Sequence record: MK327931.1
Length of the DNA: 64,000 nt
Strand: one strand, 5' to 3'
Source of the DNA: Escherichia phage vB_EcoM_G17
The position numbers and the translations under genes were made by a program. Shown here piece by piece: positions 52,193 to 52,450 of the stretch. A model generated the notes under the pieces. It saw only the letters and a program-made list of their open reading frames with translations. It did no database searches and was not told the DNA's origin. Each line of letters begins with the position of its first letter. Position 1 is the first letter of the stretch.

Positions 52193-52450
52193 TTATCTCA
52201 TAGATCTATGCCAACAATTACGCGGGGGACGTTTAAAAGTACTATCATGATCCTCCTGGCAAGTTATGCAGTACTTACATCCCTTAACAGCCTGGCGGCG
52301 ATTCTCAGGGATTTTATCGCCACAGTCGAGGCAATGTATCAGTGATTCTATTTGTGCGTTAATTTGCTTTCTAGCGTGGTTTACGGCGGCCTGAATCACT
52401 GCGTTAATCTCGTCTTGTTCGGCCCCGTCTTTCGCGAATCCTACAGCCAT
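52193..52450 (-). CDS. TraR/DksA-family C4-type zinc finger protein
   Basis: CLDCGDKIPENRRQAVKGCKYCITCQ: two CxxC pairs with conserved spacing and basic helix (ARKQINAQ), as in the TraR/DksA family. Confidence 0.7.
   Translation of the reverse strand: MAVGFAKDGAEQDEINAVIQAAVNHARKQINAQIESLIHCLDCGDKIPENRRQAVKGCKYCITCQEDHDSTFKRPPRNCWHRSMR

Follow-up and report, generated by a model that had tools for sequence, protein, structure and literature searches.

We found that the 85-residue protein encoded on the minus strand between 52450 (ATG) and 52193 (TAA at 52195-52193) of the 64,000-nt stretch of phage DNA analysed here (hereafter, the window) is a secure member of the TraR/DksA zinc-finger superfamily, because the profile scores, the sequence matches in the PDB and the AlphaFold2/Foldseek fold agree. 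Within this superfamily, sequence comparison places it with the YbiI type and not with the canonical TraR proteins. Such a family assignment is routine, and public annotation already contains it. Regarding function, we give a probability of roughly 0.55 to the protein docking on host RNA polymerase at the secondary channel, as TraR does, where it would change initiation without ppGpp and lower unstable promoters. This functional reading is a reasonable argument from homology, weakened by the subfamily differences detailed below.

Family assignment and predicted fold

The ORF list and its translation give the protein MAVGFAKDGAEQDEINAVIQAAVNHARKQINAQIESLIHCLDCGDKIPENRRQAVKGCKYCITCQEDHDSTFKRPPRNCWHRSMR. 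It matches the Pfam family PF01258 (zf-dskA_traR) over residues 39-68 with a score of 45 bits, where the gathering threshold is 24.9 (E=1.1e-11), and PHROG 54, 'DksA-like zinc-finger protein', with E=4.9e-19. Such matches are not expected by chance. Among the NCBIfam models, the YbiI-type NF008243/PRK11019 is the best (E=1.8e-23, residues 1-72 of 85), followed by the TraR models and then by the DksA models, all of them under their curated cut-offs: 82.8 bits against the YbiI equivalog cut-off of 96, 52.8 against 59.7 for TIGR02419 and 31.2 against 108 for NF010268 (PRK13715) in the case of TraR, and 11.5 against 115.5 bits for TIGR02420 and 16.2 against 105 for NF033459 in the case of DksA. 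The sequence matches in the PDB follow a similar order, with YbiI 2KGO as the best (1.6e-12) and TraR 5W1S/6N57 next (about 9e-6).

The zinc ligands are C40, C43, C61 and C64, spaced C-x2-C-x17-C-x2-C as in TraR. A fifth cysteine, C58, is not conserved and is replaced by V in 55% of the relatives. The original prediction had read a TraR/DksA C4 zinc finger at 52193-52450, and the profile matches, the invariance of the cysteines and the predicted fold bear it out; the C-terminal peptide that it quoted, CLDCGDKIPENRRQAVKGCKYCITCQ, is present as residues 40-65. It named no strand, and the gene lies on the minus strand. It had proposed a profile search and a structure prediction, and these returned a family match above the Pfam cut-off and a fold matching YbiI, TraR and DksA. 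A missing family match or the loss of the cysteine ligands would, by its own account, have spoken against the assignment, and all four cysteines are kept in the alignments.

An AlphaFold2 single-chain model, built from an alignment of 58 homologues (mean pLDDT 74), predicts helices at residues 8-32, 49-54 (in the small zinc-binding part) and 62-71, with low confidence for residues 1-5 and for the tail 72-85. The model thus presents the long helix, the zinc-binding globular part and the C-terminal helix expected of the fold. In the Foldseek comparison with the PDB, YbiI 2KGO ranked first, RNA polymerase-bound TraR (6N57_M, 5W1S_M) next, and then the RNA polymerase complexes of DksA (7KHI_M); for TraR 6N57_M, the TM-score normalised to the target was 0.65, with an rmsd of 3.6 Å over 67 columns. 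The helix preceding the finger, described as basic in the original prediction, is not: within 8-32, acidic residues outnumber basic ones four to two, and the N-terminal end is acidic, as it is in TraR and DksA. The positions of these features, and of those upstream of the gene, are collected in Table 1.

Table 1. Positions in the window of the gene, the parts of its protein and the upstream elements
Feature	Position	Strand	Basis or remark
CDS, YbiI-type TraR/DksA zinc-finger protein (Sharanji_gp077)	52193..52450	minus	Stop included; ORF, profile matches, dN/dS
Shine-Dalgarno-like AAAGG	52459..52463	minus	8 nt 5' of ATG; direct sequence reading
N-terminal tip, residues 1-12 MAVGFAKDGAEQ	52415..52450	minus	Sits where TraR has DxxDxA; sequence differs
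Long N-terminal helix, residues 8-32 (predicted)	52355..52429	minus	AlphaFold2, pLDDT about 76-80
First zinc knuckle C40-L-D-C43	52322..52333	minus	Invariant among all aligned relatives
I47-P-E-N-R51-R52 motif	52295..52312	minus	Equivalent to TraR I44-P-E-A-R48-R49; HMMER and hhalign alignment
Second zinc knuckle C61-I-T-C64	52259..52270	minus	Invariant; invariant Q65 directly after
Short C-terminal helix, residues 62-71 (predicted)	52238..52267	minus	AlphaFold2
Conserved C-terminal tail, residues 72-85 FKRPPRNCWHRSMR	52196..52237	minus	Predicted non-helical, pLDDT 50-66
65-aa ORF	52450-52647		Between the promoter at 52941-52968 and the gene
Terminator-like hairpin, UUUAAUU tail	52712..52746	minus	11 bp stem, directly 3' of the 47-aa ORF
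47-aa ORF	52753-52896		Between the promoter at 52941-52968 and the gene
Nearest upstream sigma-70 promoter, TTGACA-16-TATAAT	52941..52968	minus	12/12 match

Comparison with YbiI, TraR and DksA

The best match in both sequence and fold is E. coli YbiI (b0803; 2KGO; NF008243/PRK11019), with 40% identity and a similar length (88 aa vs 85 aa). Common to both proteins are the MAxG[FW]A.D.A tip, one long helix, the C4 finger, IPxxRR, the invariant Q65 and D69, and a basic, conserved C-terminal tail whose last residue is R; the N-terminus MAVGFAKDGAEQ carries the MAxG[FW]..D.A.Q pattern of the YbiI family. They differ in the tail, which is PRNCWHRSMR in the phage protein instead of the otherwise invariant YNRRGSKDSQLR, so that the pattern [YFI]NRRGSKDSQLR is not found, and in their genetic setting, which is a Fur-regulated chromosomal operon for ybiI and a lytic phage for the gene studied here. 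At high expression, YbiI rescues the auxotrophy of a dksA mutant, reported as 'data not shown' (PMC2613031). Our literature search on the function of YbiI retrieved nothing beyond this remark and regulon listings, and no published biochemistry for YbiI-type proteins; for jumbo or T4-like phages, it gave no account of DksA-like proteins.

F-plasmid TraR (5W1S, 6N57), a protein of 73 aa that works without ppGpp, shares with the 85-aa protein the homologous core at residues 19-73, the cysteine spacing, the overall layout in three structural elements and IPExRR. In TraR, the N-terminal helix comprises residues 2-27 and carries DxxDxA, with its tip at the active site and S2 at 4.3 Å from the Mg2+; R48 and R49 of the globular zinc domain touch the beta-prime rim helices and Si3, and the C-terminal helix (58-73) touches the beta lobe Si1 (PMC9239242, PMC6970531). 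The TraR N-terminal helix corresponds to the helix 8-32 of the 85-aa protein (PMC6970531). The arginine pair is also retained, since R51/R52 (IPENRR) align with the TraR IPEARR. In contrast, the 85-aa protein lacks DxxDxA, its N-terminal 18 residues are not alignable to TraR, and its predicted C-terminal helix spans only 62-71, followed by a low-confidence, non-helical and conserved tail of 14 residues. DksA (7KHI, 5VSW and 1TJL in Foldseek) shares the zinc-finger family and the D-x-A-x-Q pattern, but it is longer (151 aa), has residues that bind ppGpp, and forms a coiled coil of two helices where the 85-aa protein has a single long helix.

The N-terminus reads MAVGFAKDGAEQDE, without the canonical DxxDxA motif of the TraR type. 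All phage and bacterial YbiI-type members have G4 and an aromatic residue at position 5, which is always F, W or Y in a set of 111 distinct YbiI-type sequences (phage loci and bacteria), while D8, G9, A10 and Q12 are each found in 75-84% of them. When aligned with hhalign to an alignment of TraR and Orf73, residues 19-73 were placed on TraR 16-70 with 99.2% probability, using a TraR profile that is narrow, as the TraR homologue search gave close TraR relatives alone; residues 1-18 were left unaligned to TraR. MAFFT placed D8-G-A10-E-Q12 on the DksA tip D74-R-A76-A-Q78, and therefore a partial D-x-A core (D8-G-A10 vs TraR D6-x-A8) may be retained, with F5 or A6 in the position of the first Asp.

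In the copies from Asteriusvirus and Tevenvirinae, the C-terminal tail FKRxPRNCWHRSMR is near-invariant, and this form is limited to Asteriusvirus and a subset of Tevenvirinae, forming one 50%-identity cluster among 1.84 billion proteins. The usual end of YbiI-type proteins, in large lytic phages and in bacteria, is an essentially invariant [YFI]NRRGSKDSQLR, whose codons vary freely. Nevertheless, the last 12 residues of the tail RPPRNCWHRSMR align with the YbiI tail without gaps, R77 and the final R being common to both, and intermediate tails exist (HNRKVWHRSMR in P0205, and YNRKANYHTQLR), suggesting ordinary divergence. We also considered PRNCWHRSMR as a frameshift of the YbiI tail and discarded it, as no match emerged when 36 loci and E. 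coli ybiI were translated in all frames at their 3' ends. The alignments thus support FKRxPRNCWHRSMR as a divergent form of YNRRGSKDSQLR. By the same comparisons, the two termini are unusually invariant and are the most conserved parts of the YbiI-type subfamily, and neither is common to TraR.

Selection, distribution and transcriptional setting

Fifteen positions are invariant in the 58 homologues: M1, A2, G4, R27, C40, C43, I47, R51, R52, G57, C61, C64, Q65, D69 and R77. Across the 111 YbiI-type sequences, C40, C43, C61, C64, I47, R51, Q65, G4, R77 and M1 are conserved at 100%, and P48 and R52 at 98%. The dN/dS is 0.08-0.09 against close orthologues, and the synonymous sites are saturated against the T4-like copies, in which protein identity is still 65-73%. 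This conservation, together with the low dN/dS, shows a real gene that purifying selection strongly constrains. That it is a frame open by chance, or the functionless remnant of a decaying gene, could be argued from the Sharanji record, where the annotation is 'hypothetical protein' only, and from a truncated chimeric copy of the gene in a Mosigvirus. However, the reading frame is full length with all ligands intact, its dN/dS is low, its Shine-Dalgarno lies at the right distance and relatives occur in 979 phage records; the probability of this explanation is negligible, and the conservation data exclude a non-functional ORF.

Escherichia phage Sharanji (OR545507.1), a 350-kb member of the genus Asteriusvirus, matches the window at 100% identity, and the protein is 100% identical to Sharanji_gp077 (WNN14365.1), the hypothetical protein mentioned above. 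The window maps to Sharanji 322448-334447 (left part) and 23445-26445 (window 51000-54000), across the arbitrary start of the record; at the junction, about 27555-27632, the offset is ~77 nt off a simple circular join, which may reflect terminal redundancy or an assembly difference. The same or a nearly identical protein is present in ELP-22, E9.1, BF17, JP4 and ph0011, carrying the label 'DksA-like zinc-finger protein' or 'DksA C4-type domain-containing protein'. The gene thus belongs to a kind that is known in phages and has been annotated before. The 979 phage records were retrieved by tblastn (E<=1e-3), with at least 80% of the protein covered in 442 of them, and include Asteriusvirus, Dhakavirus, Moon-like, Slopekvirus and Yersinia and Erwinia jumbo phages; lambdoid and Stx phages gave weaker matches, to the finger only. 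In IMG/VR, we found 80 loci, mostly on contigs of 160-370 kb.

The YbiI-type gene moves alone: the genes next to it differ between lineages and all belong to unrelated PHROGs without assigned function. A conserved partner gene, as in the QisA-TraR pair of VP882, was considered and rejected, the upstream 65-aa ORF having no similarity to the one found before the homologue in Dhakavirus UP19. In that phage (Escherichia phage UP19, L006:4097-4480), the YbiI-type gene adjoins rI and lies two genes 3' of a member of PHROG 858, 'starvation-inducible transcriptional regulator', with no equivalent near the window gene. The Mosigvirus copy (Escherichia phage DCP548, L008:2414-2581) is a 55-aa chimeric ORF in which the last 28 YbiI-type residues (VIYCVGCQSMHDEIFKREPRNCWHRSMR) follow an unrelated N-terminus, without the first zinc knuckle; this recombination remnant is represented by PHROG 25948. 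A search for a second TraR/DksA gene in the 64-kb window did not retrieve any, and the only other CxxC...CxxC match, at 44465-44542, was discarded as spurious, being out of frame with the real ORF there.

The gene lies within a long run of small minus-strand ORFs. The window contains 13 perfect TTGACA-N15-18-TATAAT promoters, all 13 on the minus strand and 10 of them with a 16-nt spacer; most have an AT-rich discriminator, and in several this is followed by a GGGGAGAA...TTCTCCCC hairpin. Such a pattern reads as the signature of genes transcribed by the unmodified host sigma-70 polymerase. According to its description, Sharanji has a gene for an RpoD-like sigma factor but none for an RNA polymerase (PMC11895373), and it therefore depends on the host enzyme. 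Judging from its position, the nearest upstream promoter is the likely source of the transcript, and from the sigma-70 promoter setting and the run of small genes, early expression is likely. Between this promoter and the gene, the hairpin 3' of the 47-aa ORF folds with -21.8 kcal/mol (z = -3.3; none of 200 shuffles folds as well) and is identical in ELP-22, while a consensus terminator scan did not report it. It is likely a partial intrinsic terminator, and it may attenuate the read-through from the promoter to the gene. A search of Rfam with 49000-56000 did not give any match.

Several of these promoters belong to a repeated cassette, probably of early promoters, composed of TTGACA, a 16-nt spacer ending in AGTACTG, TATAAT, 'agtttacatcaa' and the GC hairpin GGGGAGAA-loop-TTCTCCCC, the latter located just 5' of the ribosome-binding site of each small gene. 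We observed it on the minus strand at 45116-45089, 46640-46613, 47134-47107, 49984-49957, 51565-51538 and 53561-53534, with a variant at 52186-52158; mRNA stabilisation or regulation are possible roles of its 5' hairpin. In addition, a non-coding element of ~200 nt is present in two copies, 84% identical, at 50640-50860 and 53930-54150 (minus strand). It consists of a terminator-like hairpin with a -35 box in its stem (AAAGGGATTGACTCCGGTCAGTCCCTTT), then GCTATTATAT, then a conserved stretch of ~60 nt with AGCCCACAGGGTGCA, and then a second promoter, TTGCAA-16-TATAAT. This element, for which Rfam gave no match, could encode a small RNA or serve as a regulatory module.

Translational coupling with the 65-aa ORF through the one-base TAATG stop/start overlap was considered and rejected, as the overlap results from a Sharanji-specific deletion: ELP-22 has 332 bp more at this junction, with its own 11/12 promoter and small ORFs. 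In sister Asteriusviruses such as ELP-22, an acetyltransferase gene is located just 3' of the DksA-like gene and is absent from the window (compared positions: window 52117-52193 and 52450; L001:5191-5547 and L001:5869-6200). As the window lacks both this gene and the 332-bp segment, the region of small genes is mosaic, with insertions and deletions.

Possible modes of action

It is plausible that the protein binds host RNA polymerase at the secondary channel: the phage carries no polymerase gene, and consensus sigma-70 promoters surround the gene studied here. In the mechanism that we favour, the protein would be made from the host-transcribed small-gene region, and its long N-terminal helix would extend along the secondary channel in the direction of the active site. 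The protein would then act as TraR and lambda Orf73 do, altering the kinetics of initiation without ppGpp, and short-lived promoters, such as those of rRNA and ribosomal proteins, would be lowered, freeing polymerase and resources for the phage. Given the promoter selectivity of DksA and TraR, consensus promoters with AT-rich discriminators are expected to be little affected, and this would include the consensus promoters of the phage. From the evidence assembled here, we infer that the protein binds RNA polymerase, how it would affect promoters and when it would be expressed; that transcription is steered toward the phage promoters, as the original prediction suggested, is speculation.

Functional precedents come from phage-encoded small proteins of the TraR/DksA fold, such as lambda Orf73 (37% identity to the 85-aa protein in the MAFFT alignment), P2 Orf82, VP882 Orf61 and VHML Orf8. 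The five phage TraR homologues tested all bind RNA polymerase and inhibit rrnB P1, and Orf73 slows host growth and increases the burst size; the tested lambda promoters are unchanged by Orf73, whereas the F promoters are activated by TraR (PMC9239242). In VP882, the RNA polymerase-binding motif of TraR is needed for the arrest of host growth (bioRxiv 10.64898/2026.07.27.740977). DxxDxA is required for the activity of TraR and Orf73, and D3N or D6N strongly reduces that of Orf73, while X. bovienii Gp34 (without D3) and P2 Orf82 (without A8), both among the five tested homologues, are active at reduced potency (PMC9239242). Nevertheless, the Orf73 group is of the TraR type and is found in temperate phages near lysis-lysogeny modules, in contrast to the YbiI-type protein of a strictly lytic jumbo phage, encoded among small genes without assigned function. 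The TraR-like mechanism is supported by the family, the fold, the conserved zinc ligands and I47/R51/R52, the selection, the tested TraR homologues, the rescue of a dksA mutant by YbiI, the dependence of the phage on the host enzyme and the promoter setting, and it is weakened by the lack of DxxDxA, the unaligned residues 1-18, the scores under the curated cut-offs, the shorter counterpart of the Si1-contacting helix, the existence of superfamily members that do not act like DksA, and the hairpin upstream of the gene.

These differences raise the idea, which we hold only tentatively, that in large lytic phages (Asteriusvirus, many Tevenvirinae, and Erwinia and Yersinia jumbo phages) the YbiI-type proteins may be a class with its own mechanism, with an invariant Gly-aromatic N-terminus in place of DxxDxA and an invariant basic tail in place of the Si1-binding helix, acting either as a plug or competitor in the RNA polymerase channel that shuts out DksA/ppGpp and Gre, or on a target other than RNA polymerase. 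Lacking the two aspartates of the catalytic site, a protein that occupies the secondary channel mainly as a competitor or plug, and not as a TraR-like allosteric regulator, could displace DksA/ppGpp, GreA/GreB and the host YbiI and so blunt the stringent response in infection, or its Gly-aromatic N-terminus could block the active-site end. The IPExRR binding motif is kept while DxxDxA is replaced by the invariant G4 and the aromatic residue 5, and the tip aspartates are needed for function but not for binding; moreover, residues 1-4 would extend past the TraR N-terminus if the hhalign register holds, although this register comes from alignment and not from structural superposition. However, the rescue of dksA auxotrophy by YbiI implies a DksA-like activity and not antagonism (PMC2613031, data not shown), and the D-x-A-x-Q core, like that of DksA (D74-x-A76-x-Q78), is retained. 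We consider this alternative unlikely.

The zinc-ribbon scaffold could also be all that is shared, with a target other than RNA polymerase. The protein would then be a factor binding nucleic acids or proteins through its invariant termini, or it would have a metal-related role, as suggested for YbiI from its iron-regulated operon. The N-terminal tip and the C-terminal tail are indeed the parts under the strongest conservation and those that TraR lacks, and some members of the C4 zinc-finger superfamily do not act like DksA (PMC9239242). Nevertheless, the residues equivalent to the TraR contacts with the rim helices and Si3 and the overall three-element architecture are kept, the iron link comes from operon position only, and a lytic phage has no obvious need for a factor of iron metabolism. 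We consider this explanation improbable.

If the binding to RNA polymerase is true, this protein would be among the few recognisable host-takeover factors in an Asteriusvirus that carries hundreds of small genes without assigned function and depends on the host enzyme, and the ppGpp-free, stringent-like reprogramming by TraR and Orf73 would reach strictly lytic T4-like and jumbo phages, beyond temperate phages and plasmids.
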